Positions 24,399 to 42,368 of a DNA stretch of 64,000 bases are shown here, piece by piece. Positions within the stretch are counted from its first letter, which is position 1; each line of letters begins with the position of its first letter. The notes beneath the pieces are model-generated. The model was not told the origin of the DNA. It was given only the letters and a program-made list of their open reading frames with translations, and ran no database searches. Made by a program: the position numbers and the translations under genes. Origin of the DNA: a virus; IMG/VR virus record IMGVR_UViG_3300045988_131485, one strand, 5' to 3'.

Positions 24399-24414
24399 CA
24401 AAGGAGTGAAATAC

Positions 24415-25572: not shown

Positions 25573-25573
25573 T

Positions 25574-25592
25574 TAGTGGCAAAGTAAATTAA
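25574..25592 (+). repeat. leader motif copy
   Basis: TAGTGGCAAAGTAAATTAA, then cAAGGAG. Confidence 0.45.
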
Positions 25593-25607
25593 CAAGGAGT
25601 GAATATA

Positions 25608-27007
25608 ATGTATTGTGCCTATGTTACCAGGATTCACAATCTGAGGAAGCATACCAATGCCGACCGGCTGCTCTGTGGCGAATGTTTCGGTAATACGGTG
25701 ATTGTGGATCTCGGCACCGACCCTGATCAGCTGGGCGTGTACTTCCCTACCGATGGCAAACTCGGTTTGGAGTTCGCACAGAAGAATGACTTGCTGCGGC
25801 GCAAGGATGAGAACGGCGCTCCGGCTGGCGGATACCTTGACCCGGAGAAGCGGAATATTAAGGCTCTCAAGCTCCGGGGCGAGAAGAGCGACGGTCTGTT
25901 CCTCCCTCTCTCCTGTTTAGCTTCTTTTACCGATATCAAGAAGCTCCAAGAGGGCGATACGATCTCTGTGTTGAACGGTATCACTATCTGCGAGAAGTAC
26001 GTACCCGCCGTCAAACGCGCCTCCGGTAGTGGGGGGGTGGCAATCATGTTCGTAAGCGTTCTGATCCTATCTCCCCGCTCTTCCAAGAACACGCTGACAC
26101 GGAGCAGTTGGCCTACAACCTCTCCGCATTCCATGCTGGGGATCTGGTAGAAGTTACCCTGAAAATGCACGGAACTTCTCAGCGTACCGGCTATCTGCCT
26201 GTGTTGCAGGGCTATAAATATCGGAACCGTATGGAAAAGCGGCTCTATGAGAGTCGTAAGACCCCGAATGTGATTCGTTCCAAAATCAAGCGGGCACCCA
26301 TCTATGATTGGGGCTATGTTACCGGAACCCGCCGCGTGGTTCTGGATACCTTCGATGAGGGAGGCTTCTACGGTAATAACGCTTTCCGCGAAAAACACGC
26401 CAACGTCTTTGAAGGAAAGCTCCACAAGGGAGAGACGGTCTACTACGAGGTTGTTGGCTTCACTGACGATGGTACGCCCATCATGAATCCCGGAAACAAC
26501 TCTAAGCTGAACGACAAGGAGTTTACTAAACAGTACGGTAAAACCACCACATTCAGCTATGGCTGCGCTCCCGATGGTAAGGAACATCCCAAGTCCGATC
26601 TTTTCGTTTACCGCATGACAATGACCAACGAAGACGGTGATGTGGTGGAGTATCCGCCCGACTTTATGCGCTATCGTTGCGAACAGATGGGCGTCAAATG
26701 CGTCCAAGTGTTCTGCCGCACTATCATCCCGGACTTCTACCAGCTCCCCGACGATGTTGGATCTCCGCAGGCAGTGAACGCCGGCGAGTATGTGAAGAAG
26801 CTGGCTGAGAATTTCTACGACGGCCCCGATCCTGTCGGCCATACCCATGTTCGGGAAGGTGTCGTGTGCCGTATTGTCAACCGTCCCAAGTTCGCCGCCT
26901 ATAAGCATAAAAACTTTGCGTTCAAGGCGCTGGAGGGACTGATCAAAGACACCGCCGCCGCGCCTGATATGGAAGAAGCTCAGGATGTTGGAGAACAGAA
27001 TGGATGA
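25608..27007 (+). CDS. ATP-dependent RNA ligase (N-terminal OB-like domain plus nucleotidyltransferase domain), reading frame broken at a G7 run
   Basis: Frame 1 runs 25608-26037 and frame 2 continues ..GGNHVRKRSDPISPLFQEHADTEQL...VTLKMHGTSQR (ligase motif I). One extra G in 26031-26037 joins the two frames. Confidence 0.7.
26031..26037 (+). repeat. G7 homopolymer at the RNA ligase frame break
   Basis: agtGGGGGGGtgg; a -1 shift or +1 nt restores the ORF. Confidence 0.9.
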
Positions 27008-27116
27008 AAAAGTCGTTTTTGGCTTTATCAACAACTTCAAAGCTGGGCAGATATGGAGCAGCTTGACTCAAGCCTATACCGGAGAATGATCCGGGATTGT
27101 ATCAAAAAGGAGCGAT

Positions 27117-27950
27117 ATGACGATGACGACTTTGATCCAGAATGAGCAGAAGCGCCAGAAGATTATGGCGCGGATGCGGGAACATCTGGTGCCCGTCTTG
27201 GAGCATTGCAGGGGAGGCTGGGTCGGCCTCTTCCTGCAAGGTTCTCAGAATTATAACCTTGACTATGAGGGTAGCGATATTGACACCAAGGCAATCATGT
27301 TGCCCAGCTTTTCCGATTTCGTGTTGAACGCCAAACCTCTCAGCACTACCCACATTATGGAGAATAACGAACACGTGGATTTCAAAGACATCCGCCTCAT
27401 GTTTGACTGTATCAAGAAGCAGAATGTCAACTTTGTTGAGATCCTGTTCACCCCTTACTCCATCATCAACCCGGAGTATGCCGATCTTTTCCAGCCTGTT
27501 CTGGACGCTCGTGAAGAGATTGCCCGATACAACAACTACGCCGGGATGAACTGCATTATGGGTATGGCTCTGGAAAAGCAAAAGGCAATGGAGCACCCCT
27601 ACCCTGCCACAATGGACAAGATTGAGGCATTTGGGTATGACCCGAAGCAGCTTCACCATGCTCTGCGGCTGCGGGAGTTTATGACCCGTTACGAAGCCGG
27701 CGAGCCTTACGCTGACTGTCTTATCAGTAACCAGTGTGATTATCTCAAAGAGGTGAAGCGCGGTTGCTACTCTTTGAAAGAAGCACGGGCACTGATGAGC
27801 ACTGCAATTCAATCTATGACCGAAGACAAAAAGCGCTATATGGATACGGTGTCTGTTTCGATCAACCAGCACGCCAATGAGGTACTGCAAAAGGCTACCG
27901 TTGAAATTCTCAAACGATCCTTCTTAAAGGAAATCCAAGGAGGAGAATGA
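27117..27950 (+). CDS. Pol-beta-superfamily nucleotidyltransferase (RlaP-like, RNA-ligase-associated)
   Basis: LQGSQNYNLDYEGSDIDTKAI (GS..D.D motif) plus a helical C-terminal region with KQLHHALRL; AAGGAG SD. Confidence 0.6.
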   Translation: MTMTTLIQNEQKRQKIMARMREHLVPVLEHCRGGWVGLFLQGSQNYNLDYEGSDIDTKAIMLPSFSDFVLNAKPLSTTHIMENNEHVDFKDIRLMFDCIKKQNVNFVEILFTPYSIINPEYADLFQPVLDAREEIARYNNYAGMNCIMGMALEKQKAMEHPYPATMDKIEAFGYDPKQLHHALRLREFMTRYEAGEPYADCLISNQCDYLKEVKRGCYSLKEARALMSTAIQSMTEDKKRYMDTVSVSINQHANEVLQKATVEILKRSFLKEIQGGE

Positions 27951-27951
27951 G

Positions 27952-28866
27952 ATGCCGATGTTTTACATGATGGTTGGCCTCCCTGGTAGCGGGAAGTCAT
28001 TCACTGCCGAAAGCATCCCTAACGCCGTCGTCCACTCCAGCGATGCGATCCGTGCCGAAGTTCTTGGTGACGAGAACGACCAAACCCAACAGGACTTGGT
28101 TTTCCAAACCCTTCACAAAAGGGTTTTGCAGGATCTGGTGGATGGCAAGGATGTGGTGTACGACGCAACCAATATCAACTACAAGCGCCGTATCGGATTC
28201 CTTGATCGTATCCGAGCGCTCCACAAACATGATTTGCGTACAGTATGTCTTTTCATGGCGACGCCCTATGAGGTGTGTTTGGAGCGCAACAATAATCGGG
28301 AACGTTCTGTCCCGGAGTCTGTAATCCAAAAGATGTACTTCAAATTCGATGTTCCTATGATGGCAGAGGGTTGGGATGAAATCAGGATCGTGGGTGACGA
28401 AGATCGCCACGACCAGATTGATACCCTTATGCTTCGTCTCTCCAAGCTGGAACATGATAACCCGCACCATGAGTACACGGTTGGTCAGCACTCTATGACG
28501 GCATGGCAGTATCTGATCAGCCACTATAAAGGTGCCGATGCTGCTCTGCTCCGCGCCACGCTGTTGCACGATATTGGCAAAGAAAAGACTAAAGTATTTC
28601 ATAACATCAAAGGCAACCCCACTGAGATCGCCCACTTCTATCATCATGAGCGTGTAGGAGCTTATGACAGCTTCTGCTATACCGGCGATCTCAGTCCTAA
28701 CCAGCGCCTTACTGTGGCGCTGCTGATCCGCTGGCATATGTGGCCGTATGCGGTTGAAAAGTCAGATAATCCGAGTAAGACGGTTAGCAAAATCAAACGT
28801 CTGCTTGGTAATGATATCTGGAACCAGGTCATGGTGTTGAACGCCTGTGACCGCAATGCACACTGA
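27952..28866 (+). CDS. P-loop (polynucleotide) kinase fused to an HD phosphohydrolase domain
   Basis: MVGLPGSGKSF Walker A; LLHDIGKE and HHERVG HD-type motifs. Confidence 0.7.
   Translation: MPMFYMMVGLPGSGKSFTAESIPNAVVHSSDAIRAEVLGDENDQTQQDLVFQTLHKRVLQDLVDGKDVVYDATNINYKRRIGFLDRIRALHKHDLRTVCLFMATPYEVCLERNNNRERSVPESVIQKMYFKFDVPMMAEGWDEIRIVGDEDRHDQIDTLMLRLSKLEHDNPHHEYTVGQHSMTAWQYLISHYKGADAALLRATLLHDIGKEKTKVFHNIKGNPTEIAHFYHHERVGAYDSFCYTGDLSPNQRLTVALLIRWHMWPYAVEKSDNPSKTVSKIKRLLGNDIWNQVMVLNACDRNAH
28782..28817 (+). promoter_or_regulatory. possible internal copy of early-type repeat
   Basis: GGTTAGCAAA-N13-TTGGTAATGATAT inside the 3-prime end of the kinase-HD CDS, 65 nt before the next start. Confidence 0.25.
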
Positions 28867-28882
28867 ATAGGAGGAAATAACT

Positions 28883-29341
28883 ATGATTCCCGACATGATC
28901 CACACTCCCTACATCGCTCCCCGCATCTCTGTTATGGCACCCCCCCCGGTAACTGCTGAACGGTTCGTTGATGAGCTTCTGAGCGGCCTGTGTATGCCGG
29001 ACGGCGGCTTTGTTGCCCATCTCGCTCCCAGCGGAGATCCTTTCTCCAACGGTTGGAATGCGGCAATGAAGCTCCAAGCCAGTCAGCCTACTTCTCGCTG
29101 TTTGCCGATGCCCGTCAATGTGATCTTTCACAACCCGGCCACCATCGTGTTCTGGGATGACGGTGATAAGACGGTTGTGAAGTGCCAGCCCGGTGATACA
29201 TTCAGCGCCGAAGCCGGCCTGACTGCTGCCATGCTGAAGAAGTACATGGGCAACGACAATACTTTCAACAAGGTCATCAACGAGTGGCTGGCTCGTGCCA
29301 GCTATGCCAGCGTCCCCGCTCTGCCGGAGGCCACAGAGTAA
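28883..29341 (+). CDS. hypothetical protein
   Basis: AGGAGG SD; contains an in-frame C8 run at 28940-28947. Confidence 0.6.
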   Translation: MIPDMIHTPYIAPRISVMAPPPVTAERFVDELLSGLCMPDGGFVAHLAPSGDPFSNGWNAAMKLQASQPTSRCLPMPVNVIFHNPATIVFWDDGDKTVVKCQPGDTFSAEAGLTAAMLKKYMGNDNTFNKVINEWLARASYASVPALPEATE

Positions 29342-29408
29342 CCAATGGACGGTATCATCCTACTGCTTTTGGCTCTGGTGCTGATTTATACGGTAGGATC
29401 GGGCGGCG

Positions 29409-30383
29409 ATGACGACAATCATTGGAACCGGGGAGGTGGGTGCTTTGCATAGCAGAGAAGAGTTGGAAGAGATGCAGCACCTGCCTCTCCAACGCAAAAT
29501 CCAGATCACTACTGCTCGTATCATCGAGTGGTATCAGCACTACGACGGGAAGGTCTATGTGGCATTTAGCGGTGGTAAGGATTCTACCGTACTACTCGAT
29601 ATTGTGCGGCGGATCTACCCCGATGTGCCTGCTGTTTTCTCTGATACCGGGCTTGAGTTCCCGGAAGTCAGAGAATTTGTTAAGAGCTGTGAAAACGTTA
29701 CGATTGTCCGGCCTGAGATGAACTTCCGTAAAGTTATTGAGGTGTACGGATATCCCGTTGTCTCGAAGCGTGTAGCTGACACTGTGGAATATGGGCATAA
29801 GCCTGGTTCTTTCAGATGGAAAGAGCTACATGGAGAGATCATGCGGAGCAACGGAACGCCGTCAGAGTTCAACTGTGAAAAATGGTGCTATCTATTGGAT
29901 GCCCCATTCAAGGTTTCTTCTCGGTGCTGTACAATCATGAAGAAGCAGCCTATGAAGAAATACTCCAAGGAAACTGGTCGAGTGCCTATTATTGCAACTA
30001 TGGCAAACGAGAGCAGATCTCGGCGTGCCACATGGTTACGTATGGGATGCAATGCTTTTTCCGGTAAGAAGCCCAGCTCCCAACCCATGTCTTTTTGGAC
30101 TGAGGAAGATGTGCTGGAATACCTCTATACCTATCAAGTCCCCTACGCTTCGGTTTATGGCGAGATCGTCAGAACTGATAGGGGGGGGTGGACGACGACA
30201 GGCGAAAAGCGTACTGGCTGTGTCTTTTGTGCCTTTGGCGCTCACCTTGAAAAAGCTCCAAACCGTTTCCAGCGTCTAAAAATCACGCACCCAAAGCTCT
30301 GGGATTACTGCATGAGGCCGTGGGAAGAACATGGTTTGGGTATGCGGCAAGTCCTTGAGTATATTGGTATTCCGGTAGAATAA
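29409..30383 (+). CDS. PAPS-reductase-family PP-loop ATP pyrophosphatase
   Basis: VAFSGGKDSTVLLDI; C-terminal RTGCVFCAFG; in-frame G8 run at 30181-30188; the start is uncertain (alternative ATG 29472). Confidence 0.8.
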   Translation: MTTIIGTGEVGALHSREELEEMQHLPLQRKIQITTARIIEWYQHYDGKVYVAFSGGKDSTVLLDIVRRIYPDVPAVFSDTGLEFPEVREFVKSCENVTIVRPEMNFRKVIEVYGYPVVSKRVADTVEYGHKPGSFRWKELHGEIMRSNGTPSEFNCEKWCYLLDAPFKVSSRCCTIMKKQPMKKYSKETGRVPIIATMANESRSRRATWLRMGCNAFSGKKPSSQPMSFWTEEDVLEYLYTYQVPYASVYGEIVRTDRGGWTTTGEKRTGCVFCAFGAHLEKAPNRFQRLKITHPKLWDYCMRPWEEHGLGMRQVLEYIGIPVE

Positions 30384-30406
30384 TACAAATAAAAAAGGAG
30401 CGCCTT

Positions 30407-31063
30407 ATGATTGATGTAATGGAAAACATCAAAAAACTCTCCGCCGCTTTGGATGCGGAAACTGCAAGCCTACATCCTTCCGGCAAGCTGCTTCTGCTTG
30501 GTTCTCAGGATAGCGTGTTCCTGAAAGCCATCAAGCGTAAGGCAGACCAGCTTGGTATCAACTGTGATCATACGTCCAACCCTCTCCCTCCCTATCGAGG
30601 GATTGTTGTGGATAGTGAAACAGTGTCGTTCAACTCTATTCTCGATCCTGATGTGGATATTGACCACTCTTATTCTCCCGGAATGTCGGCGGTCTCTCAA
30701 GCAGTCATGGATTTGCTAATTGAGTCTGGATTGGTATGGGAGAAGGATATTACCATCGTAGGCCGAGGGCACGCCGTTAAAGAACTGGCGAAGTATTTGG
30801 ACTTTAACAACGCGACGGTTACAGTAGCACATTCCAAAACAAAAAGCCTGTTGCAAGCTACGCAGAACCGGGATGTGGTGATTTACGCAACTCCGATTAT
30901 CACGCAGGATATTTCCTACAATACCCGCGATCTGGTTATTGATCTGGGAAACAGCGTCCCGCATCCTGACCGGCTTAATTGCCCCTATGTAAATCGGATC
31001 GGACAGCTTACCGTAAGTATATTGCTGAACCGTTTTGCAAAGAAGGAGTCGGTATGGATCTGA
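30407..31063 (+). CDS. FolD-like (methylene-THF dehydrogenase/cyclohydrolase-like) protein, divergent
   Basis: ITIVGRGHAVKELAKYLDFNNATVTVAHSKTKSL...DVVIYATP...VIDLG matches the FolD NAD(P)-binding half. Confidence 0.5.
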   Translation: MIDVMENIKKLSAALDAETASLHPSGKLLLLGSQDSVFLKAIKRKADQLGINCDHTSNPLPPYRGIVVDSETVSFNSILDPDVDIDHSYSPGMSAVSQAVMDLLIESGLVWEKDITIVGRGHAVKELAKYLDFNNATVTVAHSKTKSLLQATQNRDVVIYATPIITQDISYNTRDLVIDLGNSVPHPDRLNCPYVNRIGQLTVSILLNRFAKKESVWI

Positions 31064-31264
31064 AATTCAACACAGTATATTTTACCCAAAAACCTATTCC
31101 GCTGCCCCATGCGATTTTTAAGGGCGGCGAAAATAATTCAAATTTAGAAAGGAGCTAATACCAATCCCGGTAAACCGGGTTTCTACAAGATTGATAAGTG
31201 TAGAGTAAAGCCGTCTGTTACAGCGTGAAAGCCATCTGGCCGGTAGCAAGGGAGGATTAGACGG

Positions 31265-32107
31265 TTGACCTCAGCCGAGATGGTTGTGGTCGGTATGAAG
31301 CACATCGTTTGTTTTTCTGGCGGTCATTCCTCTGCGATTGCCGCCGTGGAAGTAGTTAGAAAGTTCGGAGCAGAGGACACGATCTTGCTCAATCATGATT
31401 TGTGTCCTCGAACCGAAGACGCTGATATCAAGCGTTTCAAAAAACAGGTTTCGGATTATCTGGGCGTTCCCATTACTTACGCCAATATGCCCGGATGGTA
31501 TGTTAAGGATCAGTTCGACGTGTGTATGGAAATCAAGGCGTTTAAGGCTGGCGCTCAGTCCACCGCCTTTTGCACCAACAGACTGAAAACCGAACCTTTT
31601 CATAAATGGCTGTCCGAGCACTATCCCGCAAATCCTCCCGAAGTAAGGGACGATATCTCATTAGTCTATGGCTTTGACGCCAATGAACAGCACCGTATTC
31701 GGCGCAGAGTTGGCATTATGGCCGCGATGGGGTACCAAACAGAGTACCCTTTGACATGGGAGGTACGTACTATCCATGACATCGAGGAGGTTGGGATTGA
31801 GCGTCCGAAGACCTACAGCATTTTCAATCATGCAAATTGTACCGGGTGTCTGAAAGCCGGCAAACAACATTGGTTTGTTGTTTATTGCCTCTATCCTAAA
31901 ATATGGGAAAAGGCGAAGCTGGCCGAAGACACAATCGGGTACAGTATTCTCAAACAAGGCTATCTTTCAGACTTTGAGGCGGAATTTGCCAAGCTCAAAG
32001 AAAAGGCGTTGCCGCCCACTGAAAAAGCCAAACCTCAAACATTTTGGGCCGCTGCACGAAAGCTCATCAAGGACGACGATGATCTACCGTGTGAGTGCTC
32101 ATTTTAA
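31265..32107 (+). CDS. second PP-loop ATPase (PAPS-reductase-like)
   Basis: IVCFSGGHSSAIAA; TTG start 8 nt after AGGGAGGA. Confidence 0.6.
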   Translation: MTSAEMVVVGMKHIVCFSGGHSSAIAAVEVVRKFGAEDTILLNHDLCPRTEDADIKRFKKQVSDYLGVPITYANMPGWYVKDQFDVCMEIKAFKAGAQSTAFCTNRLKTEPFHKWLSEHYPANPPEVRDDISLVYGFDANEQHRIRRRVGIMAAMGYQTEYPLTWEVRTIHDIEEVGIERPKTYSIFNHANCTGCLKAGKQHWFVVYCLYPKIWEKAKLAEDTIGYSILKQGYLSDFEAEFAKLKEKALPPTEKAKPQTFWAAARKLIKDDDDLPCECSF

Positions 32108-32120
32108 GGAGTTGTTTAAG

Positions 32121-32687
32121 ATGAAGATTCTTGTAATAGTGGATATGCAAAACGATTTCATCAATGGTGCGCTCGGAACCCCGGAGGCGCAGGCCGCTGT
32201 TGGAGATGTCGCCAAAAAGATTTCTGGCTTTGACGGAGACCTGATTTGCATTACCAAGGACACCCATCGTTCTGCCGACTACCTGAAAACCCAAGAAGGT
32301 CAGCTACTTCCTGTCGAGCACTGCATTGAGGGGACTCACGGCTGGCGGCTCGACGATATCATTGCCACGGCTGTTAGCCATGCGGCTATCGACGCGGAGA
32401 AAAGCGTATCCGTATTCCAGAAAGGTACGTTTGGCTCTGTGGAGTTGGGCGATTACCTGGTAGAGCTTTCCGCCAGAAGGAAGCAGCGCATTGAAGAGAT
32501 CGTTTTCGTTGGACTCTGCACCGACATCTGCGTTATCTCTAACGCACTGCTCGTCAAAGCGTTTCTACCTGAGACGAAAATCACCGTTGACGCTGCCTGC
32601 TGTGCCGGCGTTACCCCGGCAAGCCACAAAAATGCTCTGGCTGCTATGAAAGCGTGCCAGATCAATGTGGAGAACTGGGAGGTCTGA
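32121..32687 (+). CDS. isochorismatase-family hydrolase (nicotinamidase PncA-like)
   Basis: KILVIVDMQNDFINGALG...; conserved Cys in VGLCTDICV. Confidence 0.8.
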   Translation: MKILVIVDMQNDFINGALGTPEAQAAVGDVAKKISGFDGDLICITKDTHRSADYLKTQEGQLLPVEHCIEGTHGWRLDDIIATAVSHAAIDAEKSVSVFQKGTFGSVELGDYLVELSARRKQRIEEIVFVGLCTDICVISNALLVKAFLPETKITVDAACCAGVTPASHKNALAAMKACQINVENWEV

Positions 32688-32688
32688 A

Positions 32689-33501
32689 ATGATTTTTGTT
32701 GACGATAGAAGGATTGACTTCACCAGTTTCCCCGACGGTACATCTTCGATCCGTATTGCTCCCAAGCTGGATTTCACATTTTTCGCCATGGGTAAATCCG
32801 CTTACTTCATCCGGTGGATGTACGACAATGATGCCGAGTGTATGCAACTCTGGTATTTGGTGAAGCACCTCAAGAGCGCCGGCAACCCGCTCCTCTATCT
32901 GGAGATGCCGTATATCCCCAACGCCCGTATGGACAGGGTGAAGAACCGCGACGAGGTATTCACGCTCAAGTGGTTCGCCGAGTTTATCAATTCGCTCGGG
33001 TTCGAGTCTGTCAAAGTTCTCGACCCCCACTCTAATGTGGCTATGGCGCTGATTAACCGGGCTGAGACCATGGATGTGAAGCACTACATCGACTATGCAA
33101 TCCAGTGGATGGTCAGTCAGGGTATGAATCCTCTGCTGTGTTACCCGGATGAAGGTGCCGCCAAACGATACTCTGAGCTTCTTCCTATGGAGTATGTTTT
33201 TTGCATTAAACATCGTGACTGGCGCACCGGCAAGATTGAGCGGCTGGAGCTGACAGAGCCTGAGAAAGTCAACGGCAGAAATATTCTGATTGTGGACGAT
33301 ATCTGCTCTCGCGGTGGGACATTCACCCATACTGCCAAAGCTCTGAAAGAGGCCGGCGCGGAGGAAGTTATGCTCTATGTTACCCACTGTGAGAACACGA
33401 TCCTGAAAGGCACTGTGTTGACAGATGGTCTTATCTCTCGTGTATTCGCCACTGATAGCATCCTCCGTATTGATCACGAGAAGATTTCCATTTGCAGATG
33501 A
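32689..33501 (+). CDS. ribose-phosphate pyrophosphokinase-like enzyme (candidate ADPR-pyrophosphate synthetase of NARP1)
   Basis: FPDGTSSIRI, MPYIPNARMDR, YPDEGAAKRY, ILIVDDICSRGGTF (PRPP-synthetase motifs); directly upstream of the NAMPT-like gene. Confidence 0.75.
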   Translation: MIFVDDRRIDFTSFPDGTSSIRIAPKLDFTFFAMGKSAYFIRWMYDNDAECMQLWYLVKHLKSAGNPLLYLEMPYIPNARMDRVKNRDEVFTLKWFAEFINSLGFESVKVLDPHSNVAMALINRAETMDVKHYIDYAIQWMVSQGMNPLLCYPDEGAAKRYSELLPMEYVFCIKHRDWRTGKIERLELTEPEKVNGRNILIVDDICSRGGTFTHTAKALKEAGAEEVMLYVTHCENTILKGTVLTDGLISRVFATDSILRIDHEKISICR

Positions 33502-33522
33502 TTATGAAAAGAGGGTAAAACA

Positions 33523-35016
33523 ATGATTTCATACAGTCCTTTGCTCTGTTTGGACTTCTACAAGACTGCCCATGCAGAGCAGTACCCCGCAGCACTGACC
33601 AAGATGGTGTCTTATTACACCCCGCGCATGACACGGCTGGCTGATACCAAGAAGGTCACAATGTTCGGTCTTCAGGCATTTATCCAGGAGTATTTGATTG
33701 AGGCGTTCAATACTCACTTCTTTGATCGCTCATTGGATGAGGTGCTTGCCGAATACAAGCGGGTGCTGAATAACACCATCGGCACGGACGGCGTTGGTGT
33801 GGAGCGTTTGACGGCGCTTCATAAGTTGGGGTATCTGCCTCTGGAAATCCGGGCCGTGCCGGAAGGAACCCGTACCAGTATTCATGTTCCGCAAATTGAG
33901 ATCTCGAATACCAACCCCAACTTTGTGTGGTTGGTCAACTCTATCGAAACAATGCTGTCATGTACCATGTGGCATACTCAGATTTCAGCGGAAGTTGGAT
34001 ATCGTTACCGGCAGATCGTCAATAAGTACGCTGCCCTTACCTGTGACGATGATGTGGTACGGGCCAAGCTGCTGGGCGACTTTTCCATGCGTGGTCAGGA
34101 AAGCGTGGAGAGCGCCACCAAGAGTTCTGCTGCGTTCTGCCTGAGCTTCCTTAATACCGCTACAGTGCCGGCTATTCTTTGGCTGGAACACAACTACGCC
34201 TGCCGGGTGGAGAATGACGCAGTAGCTTATGGTGCTCTTTCTACTGAGCACAGTGTTATGTGCTCCAACTATGCGGTTGACGGCGATGAGATTACGCACG
34301 TGCGGCGTCTGCTGAAAGAAATCTATCCGTACCAAAACTTCTCTATGGTCAGTGACAGCTATGACTATTGGAACCTGGTCAATAATATTCTCCCCGCAAT
34401 TAAAGAGGATGTGATGGAGCACCATGGATGTCTTGCTATTCGCGGCGACAGCGGCAACCCCGTGGAGATTGTAACCGAGACGGTGTTCAAACTGTGGGAA
34501 ATTTTTGGTGGTACCGTGAATAGCAAGGGTTACAAAGTTCTTGATCCACACGTCAAGGCATTGTATGGCGATAGCATTACCCCGCAGCGGTGCGAGGCAG
34601 TGTATAAGATCCTGATGGAGCATGGCTTCGCTATCAACAATGTTTCTCTGGGTGTCGGTTCTTTCTCTATGCAGTGTCTGGAGACGATGGACGGCGGTGA
34701 AAAGACTTATGCGCCGTATACCCGTGATACATTTGGTATCGCAGTCAAAGCGACCTATGCAGAAGATGCTGACGGAAAGCCCATCATGATTTTTAAGAAC
34801 CCCAAGACAGATAGCGGACATTTCAAGAAGTCTCAGCGCGGCTGCTGTAAGGTTGTATATGACTATACGTACCACAACTTCTTCTGTCAGGACGGTTTGA
34901 CTTGGGAGGTGTCGCAGGCTGGGAACTGGCTTCAGCCAGTTTTCAAGGATGGAAAGCTCCTGAGAATTTATACCCTGGATGAGGTTCGCAAGAATCTTCA
35001 TGAGGGAAACTTTTGA
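33523..35016 (+). CDS. nicotinamide phosphoribosyltransferase-family enzyme (candidate Namat of NARP1)
   Basis: LCLDFYKTAHAEQYP N-terminus and about 500 aa length are typical of the NAMPT/NadV family. Confidence 0.8.
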   Translation: MISYSPLLCLDFYKTAHAEQYPAALTKMVSYYTPRMTRLADTKKVTMFGLQAFIQEYLIEAFNTHFFDRSLDEVLAEYKRVLNNTIGTDGVGVERLTALHKLGYLPLEIRAVPEGTRTSIHVPQIEISNTNPNFVWLVNSIETMLSCTMWHTQISAEVGYRYRQIVNKYAALTCDDDVVRAKLLGDFSMRGQESVESATKSSAAFCLSFLNTATVPAILWLEHNYACRVENDAVAYGALSTEHSVMCSNYAVDGDEITHVRRLLKEIYPYQNFSMVSDSYDYWNLVNNILPAIKEDVMEHHGCLAIRGDSGNPVEIVTETVFKLWEIFGGTVNSKGYKVLDPHVKALYGDSITPQRCEAVYKILMEHGFAINNVSLGVGSFSMQCLETMDGGEKTYAPYTRDTFGIAVKATYAEDADGKPIMIFKNPKTDSGHFKKSQRGCCKVVYDYTYHNFFCQDGLTWEVSQAGNWLQPVFKDGKLLRIYTLDEVRKNLHEGNF

Positions 35017-35032
35017 GAAAAGAGGTGCCACA

Positions 35033-35776
35033 ATGTTAGCTAACCCAAAGCGTACTAAGGATGAGATTGTCCAGTGGATTCGTTCCTACTTTGAAAGTAA
35101 CGGCCCTGGCTGCGATGCGGTGGTCGGTATTTCTGGTGGTAAAGATTCCAGCGTTGTCGCCGCTCTTTGCGTAGAGGCACTGGGCAAAGAGCGTGTAGTG
35201 GGTGTTATGATGCCGAATGGAGAACAGCCCGATCTGGACGATAGCAAGCAGCTGATCGAATTTCTGGGTATCAGATACGCCTATACCGATATCTCCAAAG
35301 CAGTGTCTGCGGTAAGTGATCAAGTAGCGCTCAATATGAACGTCAGCGATCAGACGAGGATAAACCTCCCTCCCCGTATCCGTATGGCGACCCTCTATGC
35401 TATTTCTCAGTCGTTGCCTCACGGCGGACGTGTTGCTAATACCTGCAACCGCTCTGAAGACTATGTGGGATACTCTACCAAGTTTGGCGATAGCGCCGGC
35501 GATTTTAGCCCGCTCGCTAATCTGATGGTGCATGAAGTCATCCAGATTGGGTACGAGCTTCTTCTGCCTATCAACCTGATAAGCAAGACCCCTTCCGATG
35601 GGCTGTGTGGAAAAACTGATGAGGATAATCTTGGATTTACCTATGCTCACCTGGATGCTTACATCATGTATGGCACCAGTGGAATTGAGGAAATCGACAA
35701 GAAGATTGCCTCTATGCACGATCACAACCTTCACAAGCTCAATTCTATGCCTGCCTACGGAACGACAATTTTTTAA
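35033..35776 (+). CDS. nadE: NH3-dependent NAD+ synthetase
   Basis: VVGISGGKDSSVVAAL PP-loop; ATG 35033 after AGAGGTG (the ORF track starts at 34979, inside the previous gene). Confidence 0.85.
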   Translation: MLANPKRTKDEIVQWIRSYFESNGPGCDAVVGISGGKDSSVVAALCVEALGKERVVGVMMPNGEQPDLDDSKQLIEFLGIRYAYTDISKAVSAVSDQVALNMNVSDQTRINLPPRIRMATLYAISQSLPHGGRVANTCNRSEDYVGYSTKFGDSAGDFSPLANLMVHEVIQIGYELLLPINLISKTPSDGLCGKTDEDNLGFTYAHLDAYIMYGTSGIEEIDKKIASMHDHNLHKLNSMPAYGTTIF

Positions 35777-35790
35777 TAGGCGGTGAGAAA

Positions 35791-36396
35791 ATGGAAGAGC
35801 GTACTTATTTGAGCGGCACCAGTTTGGCCGGTATGTCCCCTACCCGCTCTCGTGTGGAGAACGACTACTATGCTACTCCGTTCGAGGCGACAGAAGCCAT
35901 CCTTAGCCGAGAAGAGCTGCACGGCTCCATTTTGGAGCCTGCGGCTGGTGAAGGGCATATCAGTAAGGTGCTTCGGGAACATTATCCCAACAGTCAAATT
36001 ATCTCTACTGATATGGTTCAGAGAGATGATAGGTTCGGATGTGGTATTGTTGGCGGGGTGGATTTCCTCACTGAGAACTATCCCGAAAAATTCAACAACG
36101 TCATCACGAACCCTCCGTTCTCTTTGGCGAAAGAGTTCGCTGAGAAAGCTCTGGAGGTATCCACTGGCAAGGTGATCCTGTTCGCCAAGATCCAGTTTCT
36201 CGAAGGACGGCAACGTAAGGATTTCTTTGCCACCCACCCTCCGAAAGCCGTGTATGTATTTTCAAAACGTGTCAATCCTTTGAGAAACGGATTGGAAGTT
36301 GACGAAAATGGTAAGCCCTGGTCAAGTACCATGTGCTTCGCTTGGTTCGTATGGGAACATGGCTATACCGGCGAACCTTGCATTCGTTGGATTTAA
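35791..36396 (+). CDS. DNA N6-adenine methyltransferase (small phage type)
   Basis: DYYATP, EPAAGEGHI, VITNPPFS. Confidence 0.8.
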   Translation: MEERTYLSGTSLAGMSPTRSRVENDYYATPFEATEAILSREELHGSILEPAAGEGHISKVLREHYPNSQIISTDMVQRDDRFGCGIVGGVDFLTENYPEKFNNVITNPPFSLAKEFAEKALEVSTGKVILFAKIQFLEGRQRKDFFATHPPKAVYVFSKRVNPLRNGLEVDENGKPWSSTMCFAWFVWEHGYTGEPCIRWI

Positions 36397-36397
36397 T

Positions 36398-36416
36398 TTG
36401 CAACAAAGTAAATCAA
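36398..36416 (+). repeat. leader motif copy
   Basis: TTGCAACAAAGTAAATCAA, then GAGG. Confidence 0.5.
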
Positions 36417-36427
36417 GAGGTGCAGCT

Positions 36428-36954
36428 ATGAAGATGGATAAGGTTGCCGGCAGTGGCAACGACGAGTTCTATACACCGGAGTATGCGATTGCCCCGTTGT
36501 ACAAGTATCTTCCACCCCCCCCGTGACAATTTGGTGTCCGTTTGACACTGAGGATAGTCTGTTTGTAAAGCTCTTTCGGCAACGCGGCTATACCGTTATC
36601 GCAACACATATTGCAAACGGTCAGGATTTTTTCGCTATTGACCCACCGAAGTGTGACTACATCATCAGTAATCCTCCGTATTCCCTCAAAGGCGAAGTGT
36701 TTGAGCGACTATTCCAGTTGAATATACCCTTTGCTATGTTGGTAGGGGTCGTCGGACTTTTCGAGAGTCAGAAACGCTTTAAGATGTTCCGTGAGCATGA
36801 TTTTGAAATCATGTATCTCAATCGGCGTGTATCTTACTTTAAGAACTACGCCGACCAAAAGCCGTCTCTAAACCCGCCTTTCAGTAGTGTCTATGTATGC
36901 AAAGGAATGTTACCAAAGCAGATTATCTTTGAAGAAATTCAAAAAACCTCATAA
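36428..36954 (+). CDS. second DNA N6-adenine methyltransferase, frame broken at a C8 run
   Basis: MKMDKVAGSGNDEFYTPEYAIAPLYKYLPPPP then stop. The -1 frame continues TIWCPFDTEDS...IISNPPYS. One extra C in 36515-36522 joins them. Confidence 0.75.
36515..36522 (+). repeat. C8 homopolymer at the methyltransferase frame break
   Basis: ccaCCCCCCCCgtg. Confidence 0.9.
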
Positions 36955-36973
36955 TAGCAACAAAGAAAATTAT
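36955..36973 (+). repeat. leader motif copy
   Basis: TAGCAACAAAGAAAATTAT. Confidence 0.5.
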
Positions 36974-37001
36974 TGACTTTATGGAGACAGTATGATAGAA
37001 T
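36973..37001 (+). promoter_or_regulatory. sigma-A-type promoter
   Basis: TTGACT - 17 nt - TAGAAT with TG at the extended -10 position; lies between two leader-motif copies. Confidence 0.65.
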
Positions 37002-37044
37002 AAAAGCAGTTCGAGGGAGATTGTAAATCCCTCAACCTTCCGTT

Positions 37045-37063
37045 TAGCAACAAAGAAAACCAA
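37045..37063 (+). repeat. leader motif copy
   Basis: TAGCAACAAAGAAAACCAA, then caAAGGAGG. Confidence 0.5.
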
Positions 37064-37079
37064 CAAAGGAGGAACTAAT

Positions 37080-37957
37080 TTGGATTACCAAACTGCCCTT
37101 TTCTGCGAGTTCGATCGTTACGCCGCAGAAAGCTATTGCGCCGTTCATGGTGTTGATCCCACCCTTAACATCGGAGATATTACCAAAGCCGATGAGAAGG
37201 CTGTGCCGGATTTCAATGTCATGTTCGGTGGAAGTCCGTGTCAGGATTTCAGCATAGCAGGCAAACAGGGGGGGGCTGCATGGACTTGTAAGCATTGCGG
37301 CCACGTATATAATCCCCTGGAAGCTCACTATGATCAACGCGACCATTGCCCTAAGTGCGGATCAACTGAAATCGAGAAGACTCGCTCTTCCTTACTGGTC
37401 GAATGGCTGCGTTTCCTAAGAGAAAAGAAGCCTCGCTTCGCTATCTACGAGAACGTTAAAAATATTACCGGTTCTCGCTTCTATGCCACTTTTAACCTCT
37501 TTGTCAAAGAGCTGGAAGACTACGGTTACAACGTCTACTGGCAGGTTCTGAATGCAAAACACTACGGAATCCCCCAGAATCGTGAGCGTGTTTACTGTGT
37601 CATCATTCGTAAGGATTTAGATAATGGGAAGTTTAAGTTCCCGTCTCCTATCCCTTTGAAAAAAGCGCTGGTAGATATGCTGGAGGATAAGGTTGACGAG
37701 CGATACTACCTGCCTGATGACAAGGTAGCTGCCATGATAACCCCCCCCGTTCAGACAAATCAGTAACACCGTCCGCACCAGCGGAAGAGGTTCCACAGAC
37801 CACCACTGCTGGGACTTGCTCACTTGCCGGTGTGAAGCTGAGTAAGAAAGGCACCCAGTTTGAAGGATACTGTGAGACGGCCTTGACTTTGCTGGCCCGT
37901 GACTATAAGGGCTTTGGAAATCAGCAAATGACAGGAGTTATGGAGCATAATGAGTAA
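37080..37957 (+). CDS. C5-cytosine DNA methyltransferase, part A (motifs IV-VIII, lacks motif I), frame broken at a C8 run
   Basis: TTG start 8 nt after AAAGGAGGAA; GGSPCQDFSIAG, YENV, QNRERV. After 37741-37748 the -1 frame continues ...ETALTLLARDYKGFGNQQMTGV to the stop at 37957. Confidence 0.8.
37741..37748 (+). repeat. C8 homopolymer at a C5-methyltransferase frame break
   Basis: ataaCCCCCCCCgtt. Confidence 0.9.
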
Positions 37958-38869
37958 GCGATATATTATCCCCGCTGCAATTCGTGGAAGATATGCGGGG
38001 GGGGTAAGATAATACAGCGTTTGGAAGTTCGCCCTAATATGTGTACCAACACTTTGACGGGTGTTCAAAAAGACAATGTATTGATTGAGATAGATGAAAG
38101 CGAGGAAGCTAATGTGAAAATCGTATGTGAGCGTCGATGCGATGAAGGTGTGCGTTTTTTCAAAGATAATGTCTGCGGCACTATTCGCACCATTGATGGG
38201 GGGGGGGACAAGAGAGTGATTGAAAGAAGTCCTACGTCAGAAGATAAAATCACAATGATTGGCGGCTTACAAAAGCACCAGACTCCAAGAAACGATGGTA
38301 TTTGCCCATGCATAAATAGTGCCGCTGGTATGGGCGGCGGACAAACACCTATCGCAATACGCCCGAGTTTTCGTGTCCGTAAACTTACGCAAAAAGAGTG
38401 TTGGCGTTTAATGGGTTTCCAAGATCAGGACTTTGAACGTGCCAAATCCGCCATGAACGAAAATATCTATGGTGGAGCAGATAGGAGCGGGTCACAGCTT
38501 TACAAGCAGGCTGGAAACTCTATCGTGGTAGACGTTCTCTGTGCCATTTTGGATGAACTTCACAGTGCTATGCCGTATCTCTTTGAAGATATGACTGTTG
38601 GTTCTTTCTTTTCCGGTATCGGAGCATTTGAAAAAGCACTGTCTACTTTTGATATTACCGATGTTAGCGACAAAGTAAATTATTCTGATAAGAATGATGA
38701 ACTGAAGCAGCTCGGATATATCAATGATTACAATGGAGACGCCAATCGTGTATATGATGGCGAAACCATTGCACGTGCTTTGAAAGCCGAAGCGGGAGGG
38801 GGCGGAGCCAAGACTGGATGGTATGCTCTGAGAAGCCCGGAGGTTGACCATGGAGAAAGTCAGAATTAA
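37950..38869 (+). CDS. C5-cytosine DNA methyltransferase, part B (target-recognition region, motifs IX-X, then an out-of-order motif I), frame broken at a G8 run
   Basis: ATG 37950 overlaps the part A stop; MSKRYIIPAAIRGRYAGG, then the -1 frame gives KIIQRLEVRPNMCTNTLTGVQKDN...RKLTQKECWRLMGF...YKQAGNSIVVDV...MTVGSFFSGIGAFEKAL. Confidence 0.75.
37997..38004 (+). repeat. G8 homopolymer at a C5-methyltransferase frame break
   Basis: tgcGGGGGGGGtaa. Confidence 0.9.
38665..38683 (+). repeat. leader motif copy inside the C5-methyltransferase part B reading frame
   Basis: TAGCGACAAAGTAAATTAT, exactly where similarity to a methyltransferase N-terminus stops. Confidence 0.5.
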
Positions 38870-39065
38870 GCAGGCCACCCAAAAAGGTTATATCGAGTGT
38901 GCTGTGGGGGGGGTAGCGGATTTATCTTACCCGTCCAGTAAAACTCGAAGAGGTCGAGTCCAGGAAGGTGGTTGGATTTGTCCAACTATCACTGCAACAG
39001 AAACCGGCATTTGTCGGATAGAAAGAGGTGATTCATATGAGCATTGCGTTGAGAAACCGCCGTGA
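38844..39065 (+). pseudogene. C5-methyltransferase target-recognition-domain-like fragment
   Basis: IKQATQKGYIECAVGGVADLSYPSSKTRRGRV resembles methyltransferase TRD segments; no catalytic motifs; in-frame G8 at 38906-38913. Confidence 0.45.
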
Positions 39066-39324
39066 AGCATATGACCAGATCGAACCGAAGCGTCCTAATC
39101 GTAAGGCTATGATTTTGGATATTCTGACCAGCGGTGATCCTGGCGGTATGACTGCTGATGAGATTGGCGAGAAGCTGGTCTCTGAGGGCAAAATCCCCAC
39201 CAACAGTCCGAACTTCACACGGCCTCGTCTGACAGAGATGAAAGCCGAGGGCAAGGTTGTGATCGTCGGCAGACGTCTTGGCAAGTCTGGGTGCAATACG
39301 GCAGTCTGGAAGGTGAAGCGCTGA
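39037..39324 (+). CDS. winged-helix DNA-binding protein
   Basis: ATG 39037 after AAGAGG; AMILDILTSGDPGGMTADEIGEKL...RPRLTEMKAEGKVV. Confidence 0.6.
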   Translation: MSIALRNRREAYDQIEPKRPNRKAMILDILTSGDPGGMTADEIGEKLVSEGKIPTNSPNFTRPRLTEMKAEGKVVIVGRRLGKSGCNTAVWKVKR

Positions 39325-39584
39325 TGTATGGTGAATACACCTGTCTGGACTGTGGCAAAACCTTTGACGATCCGAAGCGATGGGAAGAACGCCATGGGTT
39401 AGATTCTCCGCCCTATGAGGATTTCAGCGGTTGTCCTTACTGTGGCGGAGCCTATGCCCGTACTATCCTTTGCGATGCCTGCGGAGAACCGATAGTCGGC
39501 GATTATGTCAAAATCCAAACAACTGGCGACTGCTATTGTGATGAATGCTTCATGATGAAATCGCTGGGCGAAGATGATCCATGA
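39324..39584 (+). CDS. zinc-ribbon protein
   Basis: Stop-start overlap TGATG; CLDCG...CPYCGG...CDACG...CYCDEC. Confidence 0.6.
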   Translation: MYGEYTCLDCGKTFDDPKRWEERHGLDSPPYEDFSGCPYCGGAYARTILCDACGEPIVGDYVKIQTTGDCYCDECFMMKSLGEDDP

Positions 39585-40378
39585 GAAGAGGTCGTGAAAT
39601 GAAAACTTCAGTCAAACGGCGTGCGAAAAACTGCATACGGGGAGCGGTTTTATTGGCCTGTTTCATTGCCGTCTGGTATGTGGCCTCGTGCTTCACCCAA
39701 CCGCTGTTTATCCCCGCCCCTGCTACCGTCTGGGAAGCAATCGTCGGGTTGGCAGAGACAGGCCAGTTGCAAAAAGGACTTGCCTACTCTTTCCTGCGGA
39801 TTACTGGTGCGTCTGCTCTTTCTATGCTGGTAGCAATTCCCCTCTCCCTTCTGATTTATGGCGTGAAGCCTATCAAGGAAACTATCATGCCGGTTGTTTC
39901 CTTCCTGCGGTATGTTCCCGTAACCGCATTTTCTCCGCTCCTGATCCTATGGTTTGGGATTGGGGAGCAGATGAAAATTTCGTTCCTATTTATTGCAACG
40001 TTTGTCTACTTGCTGCCGTCGATCCTGCTTTGCTTTAACGACGTACCGCAAGATCTGATGGATACGGGCAAGACAATCGGAATGACCAGTTGGGAGACAA
40101 TCAAAGAAATCCTGCTCCCCGCATCGCTCCCTTCAATATTCAGTACGTTCCTTATGATGTATGGCATTGGCTGGACATACTGCGCCGTGGTAGAGGCAAC
40201 CAACGCTAAGTACGGCTTGGGCTTCATCATCAATGTAAGCTCCGCCAGAGGCCGTACCGCCGTGGTGTTCGGGGCAATCATCGTAATCATGTTGTTCAGC
40301 TTCGTTTTTGACAAGCTGGGGAACTTGCTGATCCGAAAGATATTCCAGTGGAGGTACTGCGATGATCAAGTTGAATGA
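39581..40378 (+). CDS. ABC transporter permease (NitT/TauT-type)
   Basis: Six hydrophobic segments; EAA-loop-like region ...DTGKTIGMTSWETIKEILLPASLPSIFST. Confidence 0.85.
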   Translation: MRRGREMKTSVKRRAKNCIRGAVLLACFIAVWYVASCFTQPLFIPAPATVWEAIVGLAETGQLQKGLAYSFLRITGASALSMLVAIPLSLLIYGVKPIKETIMPVVSFLRYVPVTAFSPLLILWFGIGEQMKISFLFIATFVYLLPSILLCFNDVPQDLMDTGKTIGMTSWETIKEILLPASLPSIFSTFLMMYGIGWTYCAVVEATNAKYGLGFIINVSSARGRTAVVFGAIIVIMLFSFVFDKLGNLLIRKIFQWRYCDDQVE

Positions 40379-41003
40379 TCTGGCTATTGGGTACAACGGC
40401 GAAGCAATTCTGGAGCACATCGACCAGGAATTTGACGACGGTTTGATTTACGGTATTTTGGCGAAGTCTGGTGCCGGTAAGACGACTCTCCTCAAAACCA
40501 TCTCTGGCCTTCTTCACCCTGTTCATGGTGAGGTTATCATTGATGGCACTACCTATCGGAACGCCGACAAGAACCCTGTGTACATGATGCATCAGCGCTA
40601 TTCCAACTTCGGATGGCTTTCCTGCACGGAGAATGTGCTGATTGCCCAACGGGACAAAAAACTCCGTAGCCGCGATGACGCTATCAAGGTACTTGCAGCG
40701 GTTGGGTTAGAGCAGTATGCAGATAAATGGCCGTCTCAGCTATCAGGTGGTATGCAACAGCGCCTTGCGTTGGCGAGAACACTGTATGTCAAGCCGAAAT
40801 ACCTACTTATGGATGAACCGTTATCCGCTTTGGACGACAAAACCCGTAGCAAAATGCAGCGTTTGATTTTGGATGTCCATGCTGAGACAGGCAACACAAT
40901 CATTATGGTAACGCACAGCCAGGACGAGGCGTTCAAAATGTGCGATAAAATAATCAAATTTGAAACGAGAGGAGCTGTAACAAACCATGGCAGGTTTATT
41001 TGA
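40362..41003 (+). CDS. ABC transporter ATP-binding protein
   Basis: LAKSGAGKTTLL (Walker A), LSGGMQQRLALAR (signature), LLMDEPLSALD (Walker B). Confidence 0.9.
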   Translation: MIKLNDLAIGYNGEAILEHIDQEFDDGLIYGILAKSGAGKTTLLKTISGLLHPVHGEVIIDGTTYRNADKNPVYMMHQRYSNFGWLSCTENVLIAQRDKKLRSRDDAIKVLAAVGLEQYADKWPSQLSGGMQQRLALARTLYVKPKYLLMDEPLSALDDKTRSKMQRLILDVHAETGNTIIMVTHSQDEAFKMCDKIIKFETRGAVTNHGRFI

Positions 41004-42362: not shown

Positions 42363-42368
42363 CTTACC

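Follow-up and report, generated by a model that had tools for sequence, protein, structure and literature searches.

A NARP1-derived gene pair joined to nicotinamidase and NAD+ synthetase genes in a gut phage, and a possible deamidated route of NAD+ reconstitution

The operon described here lies at positions 32121–35776 of a 64,000-nucleotide stretch of viral DNA (IMG/VR record IMGVR_UViG_3300045988_131485), which is referred to below, at its full length, as the window. It consists of four co-directional genes on the + strand with gaps of 1–21 nt, each preceded by a Shine-Dalgarno-like site, and the operon structure is inferred from these short gaps and sites. The first gene (32121–32687, 188 aa) encodes a PncA-like nicotinamidase with an isochorismatase-like hydrolase fold. 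The second (32689–33501, 270 aa) encodes an Adps-like homologue of phosphoribosyl pyrophosphate (PRPP) synthetase (PRPS), and the third, which begins 21 nt after the end of the second (33523–35016, 497 aa), a Namat-like homologue of NAMPT that is proposed below to be a nicotinate ADP-ribose transferase of an Ala/Ser type. The last gene (35033–35776, 247 aa) encodes NadE, a single-domain, NH3-dependent NAD+ synthetase. All four family assignments are unambiguous, with matches far beyond chance. A preliminary description of this DNA, made from the sequence, had reported a four-gene NAD cluster and quoted motifs from it, and both hold with the exception of two start codons. The second open reading frame (ORF) opens at 32665, and the start supported by a Shine-Dalgarno site is at 32689 (GGGAGG, then ATG), one base past the stop of the first gene. 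The fourth opens at 34979, and its likely start is at 35033, where the Shine-Dalgarno site AAGAGGTG is followed by ATG. A promoter and terminator scan of 31–37 kb gave nothing above shuffled expectation.

The PncA-like protein matches Pfam Isochorismatase (PF00857, E = 4e-22) and phrog_19305 (E = 1.6e-35). Its top sequence relative in the Protein Data Bank (PDB) is 5zn8/6a8l, deposited as 'Isochorismatase', and the next are the nicotinamidases of yeast (Pnc1, 2h0r), P. horikoshii (1ilw), M. tuberculosis (PncA, 3pl1) and S. pneumoniae (3o90). The catalytic triad is in place in the alignment (Asp8 in VDMQNDF, Lys101 in FQKG and Cys136 in GLCTDICV). Asp47 and His49 (KDTH) and His67 (VEHC), the metal-ligand positions typical of nicotinamidases, align with those of the B. 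subtilis and yeast enzymes. The score against the NCBIfam PncA equivalog NF008623 is 32 bits, below the cutoff of 174, and the protein is a divergent member of its family for which nicotinamide is the predicted substrate. NadE matches both PF02540 (NAD_synthase; E = 9e-52, 176 bits) and TIGR00552 (172 bits, cutoff 63.65). It carries the P-loop GISGGKDSS and no glutaminase domain, and its best PDB matches are the NadE proteins of P. horikoshii (2e18, E = 7e-37) and Francisella (3fiu, E = 5e-31).

The two central genes belong to the families that make up NAD+ reconstitution pathway 1 (NARP1), a phage system consisting of Adps and Namat (Osterman et al. 2024, bioRxiv 10.1101/2024.02.11.579819; structures in PMC12774641 and PMC13586617). 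The Adps-like protein contains the FPDG, NARMDR and VDDICSRGGT motifs, matches phrog_619 (E = 6e-71) and falls below the cutoff of every NCBIfam PRPS (equivalog) model. With the validated Adps of ICP1, which has been characterised biochemically and structurally (PMC13586617), it shares 33.5% identity over 92% of its length. The ICP1 structure was not among the PDB sequence matches, and the comparison was made through alignment with the ICP1 genome sequence. Residues of ICP1 Adps that are kept are Phe18, Arg87, His121, Asp161, Lys185, Asp212, Asp213, Ile214, Cys215 and Phe221, which include the catalytic Lys185 and the acceptor residues Arg87, His121, Asp161, Asp212 and Asp213. The PP loop after DDIC reads SRGGT in the window and DGAAS in ICP1, which is within the variation of Adps proteins neighbouring canonical, Asp-type Namat; the same Adps family adjoins every Asp-type Namat cluster. 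At 270–278 aa, the window protein resembles ICP1 Adps (280 aa) rather than PRPS (315–321 aa). Its alignment to E. coli PRPS stops at residue 278 of 316, so that it is ~30 residues short at the C-terminus and is without the alpha11–alpha12 regulatory module of PRPS. The residues that bind the adenine of ADP-ribose (ADPR) are also conserved in PRPS; since ADPR-binding residues and the ATP-binding residues of PRPS look alike at this level, ADPR is here a predicted substrate.

The Namat-like protein matches phrog_448 (E = 3e-155) as well as the Pfam NAPRTase and NAMPT_N families, and contains the DFYKTAH motif. In a phmmer search of the PDB its best matches are SPbetaL1 Namat (9w5w/9w5x, E = 4e-114, 41% identity), and matches to true Nampts are weaker (Xcc 1e-47, human 1e-42). 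An AlphaFold2 model (pLDDT 93.7) gives the same picture, as the top seven Foldseek matches are all Namat chains (TM 0.90–0.93). The catalytic core is kept and is invariant across the alignment of the clade described below: Asp11, Tyr13, Phe187, Arg190, His243, Arg307 and Asp309 of the window protein are the equivalents of Asp13', Tyr15', Phe189, Arg192, the catalytic His, Arg306 and Asp308 of Namat. The SCL loop is likewise kept, with TPRMTR aligning gap-free to TPRTSR, and Arg38, equivalent to Arg40 of Namat, is nearly invariant across the clade. Because Namat structures are the top matches by both sequence and fold, the Adps residues are retained and the PRPS cutoffs are failed, the Adps-like/Namat-like pair descends from NARP1. 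The preliminary description had called the pair NARP1-like, and at the level of lineage that stands.

The nicotinamide pocket differs from that of Namat. Pocket residues were read from the alignment to 9w5x, using the numbering of PMC12774641. Asp215 of SPbetaL1 Namat (Asp219 in human NAMPT), which hydrogen-bonds the nicotinamide amide (PMC12774641), is replaced by Ala213 (codon 34159–34161, +; NTAT versus GTDT in the HMMER alignment). Gly213 is replaced by Asn211 (codon 34153–34155, +), and Ala242, which is listed as a pocket residue in the same work, by Ser240 (codon 34240–34242, +). The alanine at the 215 position is invariant among the 120 closest homologues (at least 74% identity) wherever the motif is visible, and among the best 150 representatives of 50%-identity clusters the position holds Asp in 93, Ala in 34 and Ser in 18. 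In Namat the D215A mutation lowers activity about 8-fold (PMC12774641), and in human NAMPT Asp219 defines specificity for nicotinamide, with D219S switching substrate affinity (PMC7096376, PMC4919578). Crystal structures of human NAMPT with nicotinic acid and nicotinate mononucleotide (NaMN) exist (6ta0, 6ta2), indicating that the fold can handle nicotinate.

The selectivity-clamp helix is also altered. The Namat signature there is GS-x-Phi-x-Phi-x-Phi-TRD (PMC12774641), and the window protein has GSFSMQC-LETMDGGEKTYAP-YTRD (34657–34728, +), an insertion of 13 residues relative to GSxxxxxxTRD in both the alignment and the model. The insertion is modelled as a beta-hairpin with strands at 385–390 and 393–398 (block pLDDT about 89). 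The equivalent of Phe392 (Phe381, motif position 3) and the aromatic residue just before TRD are kept. Judged by these two Namat-defining features, the pocket and the clamp motif, the window pair is not canonical NARP1. Thus alignment with the published Adps and Namat sequences and structures, which the preliminary description had proposed as a check, gives kept catalytic residues and changed pocket residues. Its suggestion that the genes have the reported NARP1 architecture is right for the adjacent pair and its lineage and fails for canonical membership.

The clamp insertion varies from about 9 to 25 residues within the clade, and basal members keep the short consensus. It was considered as a feature tied to the presence of PncA and NadE and was rejected, as six Ala/Ser lineages with a short clamp carry all four genes (Phass-1, P0144, P0146, P0155, P0169 and P0151). 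Elsewhere, P0163, P0182, P0195 and many relatives of 560–900 aa have very large insertions within the GS...TRD motif, the boundaries of which look intein-like (GSxC...SHNT), and many other Namat-like proteins have an inserted segment near residue 320.

The gene content of related loci was compared by pocket type. To collect the loci, viral contigs were scanned four times with alignments and once with a single protein, a further scan covered bacterial genomes, and individual proteins were looked up in nine cases. The single-protein viral scan returned close relatives only, and the wider diversity was reached through the alignment-based scans. Six-frame ORFs of all loci were searched with profiles for which the four window proteins served as seeds and which were extended iteratively, and viral loci were counted as 74 transferase clusters at 70% identity. 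The ten Ala-type clusters include NadE in 10, PncA in 9 and Adps in 9, and the four Ser-type clusters include NadE in 4, PncA in 3 and Adps in 3. Taken together, NadE accompanies 14/14 clusters of the Ala/Ser class, and PncA and Adps 12/14 each. In contrast, the 58 Asp-type and two Glu-type clusters all have Adps (58 and 2; 60/60), and the PncA and NadE profiles found neither gene in any of the 60. The association is strict (Fisher p = 2e-15 at cluster level, a value that overstates independence because the Ala/Ser clade is monophyletic). The residue at 242 follows the same division, with Ser in 14/14 Ala/Ser clusters and Ala in 60/60 Asp/Glu clusters, so that positions 215 and 242 split the classes completely into Ala/Ser plus Ser and Asp/Glu plus Ala. 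An explanation of the zero counts as an artefact of weak hidden Markov models (HMMs) was rejected by the controls: NadE of archaea and of Francisella and PncA of B. subtilis all give strong matches to the custom HMMs, a yeast PncA fragment was also among the controls, and the zeros at Asp-type loci are therefore real.

More than 200 related loci carry the same set of four genes. In bacterial genomes and metagenome-assembled genomes, 80/80 loci are of the Ala type and 65/80 have all four genes. Most of the absences of PncA, NadE or Adps in the Ala/Ser class fall at contig ends. In the window the genes run PncA-Adps-Namat-NadE, whereas a large sister group, with spacers of 0.4–3 kb, has the order Adps...Namat...NadE-PncA. 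The code-15 gut phage phAss-1 has an annotated nicotinamidase, Prs and NAMPT, with an unannotated NadE two genes downstream. In the Glu-type loci (e.g. L148, L160, L169 and L219), Glu occupies the Namat 215 position and SRD stands in place of TRD; Adps lies downstream of the transferase instead of upstream, and the loci are otherwise canonical, with no PncA or NadE.

This distribution bears on the simplest alternative, namely that the window holds a canonical, nicotinamide-using NARP1, and that PncA and NadE are independent accessories that would top up the host's Preiss-Handler salvage route. The descent of the pair from NARP1 is clear, and NARP1 operons are known to gain extra genes (bioRxiv 10.64898/2026.01.28.702374), both of which suit it. 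However, all members with PncA and NadE have other residues in place of both Asp215 and Ala242, none of those lacking the two genes does, and loss of Asp215 alone cripples Namat in the D215A experiment cited above. A nicotinamidase would moreover remove the substrate of Namat, and the mutual exclusion of PncA and Asp-type Namat is the pattern expected if it would starve a nicotinamide-using enzyme. We consider this explanation very improbable. The preliminary description had supposed that the nicotinamidase competes with Namat. With Asp215 changed to Ala and Ala242 to Ser, the evidence suggests no such competition; the transferase is probably fed by the nicotinamidase. Its further proposal, that the flanking hydrolase and NadE form a deamidated branch outside the two-gene system, is strongly supported by the finding that PncA and NadE occur only with the Asp-less enzymes.

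In a neighbour-joining tree, all Ala/Ser sequences and one with Val form a single clade nested within the Asp-type Namat radiation, and the short-clamp members are basal in it. It follows from their position that the loss of Asp215 went together with the gain of PncA and NadE and that the clamp insertion came later. The linkage has been kept since that single origin, over divergence to about 40% identity and through rearrangements of gene order. Based on these observations, we hold with considerable confidence that the operon is derived from NARP1 and functionally tied to the deamidated branch of NAD+ synthesis.

The four enzymes could be arranged as follows. The PncA-like enzyme would convert nicotinamide to nicotinate and NH3, and the Adps-like enzyme would convert ADPR and ATP to the pyrophosphorylated form, ADPR-PP. 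The altered Namat-like enzyme would then join nicotinate and ADPR-PP to give nicotinate adenine dinucleotide (NaAD, deamido-NAD) directly, with neither a mononucleotide intermediate nor NadD, and NadE would convert NaAD, ATP and ammonia to NAD+. If NaAD is the product of the transferase, the four enzymes form a closed route from ADPR and nicotinamide to NAD+. It seems probable that the operon is such a deamidated derivative of NARP1, rebuilding NAD+ in four steps through nicotinic acid from the ADPR and nicotinamide released by immune NADases. With slightly better than even confidence, the Ala/Ser-type Namat homologues are nicotinate ADP-ribosyltransferases, an undescribed reaction, and form with PncA, Adps and NadE a distinct fourth phage NAD+ reconstitution pathway.

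The choice of ADPR-PP over PRPP as the donor is the point at which a second alternative has to be weighed. There, the Prs-like enzyme makes PRPP, the NAMPT-like enzyme joins it to nicotinate supplied from nicotinamide by PncA, the resulting NaMN is converted to NaAD by host NadD, and phage NadE finishes the Preiss-Handler route; ADPR is not recycled. That route classically begins with PncA and ends with NadE (PMC2330246), clusters of Preiss-Handler genes do occur in gut jumbo phages (PMC11662467), and even canonical Namat keeps about half of the PRPP-dependent activity of human Nampt (PMC12774641). However, the Prs-like protein fails all PRPS cutoffs and belongs to the same family as validated Adps, the transferase clade is nested in Namat and not in Nampt or NAPRT, and the SCL with the equivalents of Arg40 and Phe392 is retained. 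A motif scan for NadD as a fifth conserved gene gave only one hit in 123 Ala/Ser loci, whereas nadD is part of the phage Preiss-Handler clusters already on record (PMC11662467). A gene for a Macro-domain protein resembling Adpp, the ADPR-1''-phosphate phosphatase type, is present in or near most unique Ala-class viral clusters, which is sensible only with an ADPR substrate. Of 118 unique Ala-type viral loci, 80 have it within the searched flanks, and at 72/123 Ala/Ser-type loci it stands between the core genes. Adps family membership, the near-absence of NadD and the Macro association together favour ADPR-PP as the donor, and we regard the PRPP-based explanation as unlikely.

Several observations weigh against the four-step ADPR-PP route, and some of them lend weight to the use of PRPP. 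Human NAMPT D219A is listed as a loss of activity (PMC7096376, PMC4919578), and Ala alone is thus unproven to admit nicotinate. The window protein no longer has an aromatic residue at the Tyr396 position, motif position 7 being Cys or Pro depending on gap placement; with the adenine clamp of its lineage remodelled in this way, the use of ADPR-PP is not assured, and this favours the PRPP-based alternative. So does the basal bacterial relative P0231, of the Ala type, which follows an Adps-like gene and a NadM-like nicotinamide mononucleotide (NMN) adenylyltransferase (GRFQTIHKGH motif), a neighbour that would indicate a mononucleotide product in that lineage. The window NadE resembles Francisella NadE, an enzyme that prefers NaMN, almost as well as canonical NadE, and could in principle amidate NaMN. 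No Macro gene was found in the window itself. Even where the flanks are adequate, some loci are without NadE or PncA; P0167 has Adps only beside it, and P0244 is an orphan. The association with PncA and NadE represents essentially one evolutionary origin rather than many independent events, and the substrates of all four steps, in every Ala/Ser-type member, are those we infer from sequence. Lastly, the nicotinate route costs extra ATP, and the selective rationale for a phage is speculation only: charged nicotinate may trap in the cell a pyridine base that is otherwise diffusible, or the route may match hosts with deamidating salvage.

Two relatives have surroundings of their own. The contig bearing P0231 (L419, 3236–6418) ends just downstream of the transferase gene, which keeps Gly213, and its gene content is a hybrid of NARP1-like and NARP2-like systems. 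The second, on a bacterial-looking contig (L333, 128–4614), has in order an NrtR-type (winged-helix) regulator, an Adps-like gene, PncA, an Ala-type Namat with a short clamp, and NadE, adjoined by a chemoreceptor gene; here the same four-gene route may occur in a cellular form regulated by ADPR. Besides the Macro gene, a gene for a HAD-like DxDxT protein recurs between the core genes at about 18 loci and one for an RtcB-like ligase at 14, and small unknown proteins are further recurrent extras; examples of loci with extra genes, the Macro gene included, are L066 (7519–8187), L094 (1656–2414) and L302 (5449–6765). None of the Macro, HAD-like or RtcB-like genes is found inside the window operon.

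The window is part of a large phage genome with nearly all genes on the + strand. Its genes include a family-level DNA polymerase, a primase-helicase, an anaerobic ribonucleotide reductase (NrdD) and a helicase-methylase. The segment at ~26.8–42.1 kb (26517–42135) is 95.6–97.5% identical at the DNA level to positions 301525–317015 of NZ_JACOQI010000002.1 (L339), within a 388-kb contig of the gut isolate Dysosmobacter segnis BX15 (Oscillospiraceae). On account of this near-identical segment the element is assigned to the phages or prophages of gut Clostridia, and Dysosmobacter probably carries it as an integrated prophage or otherwise stably. A DNA-level search of the region against GenBank phages gave short, weak matches only and no described phage; phAss-1, the closest annotated phage, was reached at the protein level only. 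The Ala/Ser-type system is abundant among phages and prophages of gut Clostridia, including Oscillospiraceae, Lachnospiraceae and Ruminococcus, with protein clusters of thousands of members.

This context raises a third alternative, in which the chemistry is as in either of the routes above and the role is not counter-defence: the genes would be a general auxiliary metabolic module raising the NAD+ supply of a large phage that has its own NrdD and other replication functions, or a lysogenic-conversion trait for a niacin-dependent gut host. In its favour, the element is 97.5% identical to a region of Dysosmobacter segnis and is probably a prophage. The NrtR-type regulator upstream of the same four genes on the bacterial-looking contig also fits, bacterial NARP1 homologues without an assigned physiological role exist (PMC12774641), and NAD genes of gut phages have been interpreted as metabolic complementation (PMC11662467). 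Conversely, an anti-defence role has been demonstrated for the parent pathway, NARP1, recycling of ADPR is useful mainly once NAD+ has been cleaved, and the association with an Adpp-like Macro gene points to an arms race, Adpp being a counter to aRES defence. A role other than counter-defence is therefore decidedly unlikely, and the operon would more naturally serve against NAD+-depleting defence.

The genes around the operon are also on the + strand. Directly upstream (24406–32107) lies what looks like a nucleic-acid modification module, perhaps of sulfur or deazapurine type. It comprises a class-V aminotransferase or cysteine-desulfurase-like gene (24406–25572), an AAA_33 kinase with an HD domain (27952–28866), two PAPS-reductase-like genes (29409–30383 and 31265–32107) and a truncated FolD-like protein with the NAD(P)-binding domain only (30407–31063). 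Immediately downstream of NadE is a run of DNA methyltransferase genes (35791–38869), with an MTS-like gene (35791–36396), a Dam-like gene (36523–36954) and a C5-cytosine methylase split into two ORFs with a zinc-ribbon insert (37080–37766 and 38021–38869). Further on is a phage-borne ABC-transporter-like set (39581–43943) consisting of a BPD_transp_1 permease (39581–40378), an ABC ATPase (40362–41003), a protein of no assigned family (40987–41547), a PspA/IM30-like protein (41547–42362) and an NMT1/THI5-like solute-binding domain fused to a C-terminal OmpA-like domain (42369–43943). The sole tRNA gene found in the window is tRNA-Ser (GCT) at 21268–21358 (+).

Depletion of NAD+ ranks with the most common of antiphage strategies, and no phage countermeasure to it is more abundant than NARP1. 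About one third of the nearest Namat-like sequence clusters belong to the Ala/Ser branch. If the proposed route is correct, this branch would be a large, unrecognised part of NARP1, dominant in phages of human and animal gut Clostridia, that works through nicotinate and deamido-NAD. It would also add a new reaction of NAD metabolism, nicotinate + ADPR-PP to NaAD, bypassing PncB and NadD. Anti-defence detection tools would at present be merging two biochemically different systems, and phage 'NAMPT + Prs' pairs could be annotated by a rule of Asp/Glu versus Ala/Ser at position 215 and Ala versus Ser at position 242. Bacterial PncA activity is already known to matter in niacin and NAD flux of the gut microbiome, on which a phage route of this kind would bear. 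A literature search found no paper linking NARP1 with nicotinate, PncA or NadE, and the texts and supplements of the NARP papers examined make no mention of nicotinate, PncA, NadE or NaAD. The four-gene variant is thus undescribed in the literature found.

Among known systems, NARP2 (Nampt and Nmnat) and NARP3 (PnuC and a NadR-like protein; PMC13464706) are likewise phage-encoded means of restoring NAD+ after depletion, and NARP2 uses an enzyme of the NAMPT fold. Unlike the proposed route, however, both go by way of NMN and use an adenylyltransferase, with no recycling of ADPR. No NMNAT, NadR or PnuC gene was found in the window cluster or in the neighbouring genes scanned. Bacterial nrtR-prs-nadV operons pair a Prs paralogue with a NadV-like gene under the ADPR-responsive NrtR (Rodionov et al. 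2008, PMC2330246). They and the bacterial NARP1 (PMC12774641) share this pairing with the window, and the relative on the bacterial-looking contig shows an NrtR-like gene ahead of the full set. They are two-gene, nicotinamide-using systems, whereas the window operon is phage-borne and has no regulator gene. Preiss-Handler salvage proceeds through PncA, PncB, NadD and NadE, and KEGG annotation has been used to catalogue NAD gene clusters in gut jumbo phages, among them pncB-nadD-nadE (PMC11662467). The window operon has in common with it the entry by nicotinamidase, the exit by NadE and, as predicted, the intermediates nicotinate and NaAD. However, Adps and a NAMPT-fold transferase stand in the middle in place of a PncB-type NAPRT and NadD, and the ribose-phosphate-adenosine moiety would come from ADPR and not from PRPP and ATP.

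The nearest described systems are NARP1 itself and NARP1-AP, in which the Macro phosphatase Adpp, acting on ADPR-1''-phosphate, is added to Adps and Namat (bioRxiv 10.64898/2026.01.28.702374). As in NARP1-AP, the two-gene core is extended by further enzymes, and many relatives of the window operon also hold an Adpp-like Macro gene. The window operon is without that gene, and its extension would act on the pyridine half of the molecule, with re-amidation as the last step, rather than on the ADPR half. With NARP1 it shares a phage-borne, adjacent Adps-like/Namat-like pair of the same families and folds, in which the catalytic core, the catalytic Lys of Adps, the DDIC PP-loop, the SCL with Arg40, and Phe392 are all represented. 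It departs from NARP1 in the substitutions of Asp215 by Ala, Ala242 by Ser and Gly213 by Asn, in the 13-residue hairpin that breaks the clamp-helix consensus, and in the nicotinamidase and NadE genes alongside, which are absent from Asp/Glu-type NARP1 loci. Finally, the predicted product of its transferase is NaAD in place of NAD+, so that two more enzymatic steps would be needed, and these are the ones that PncA and NadE could supply.

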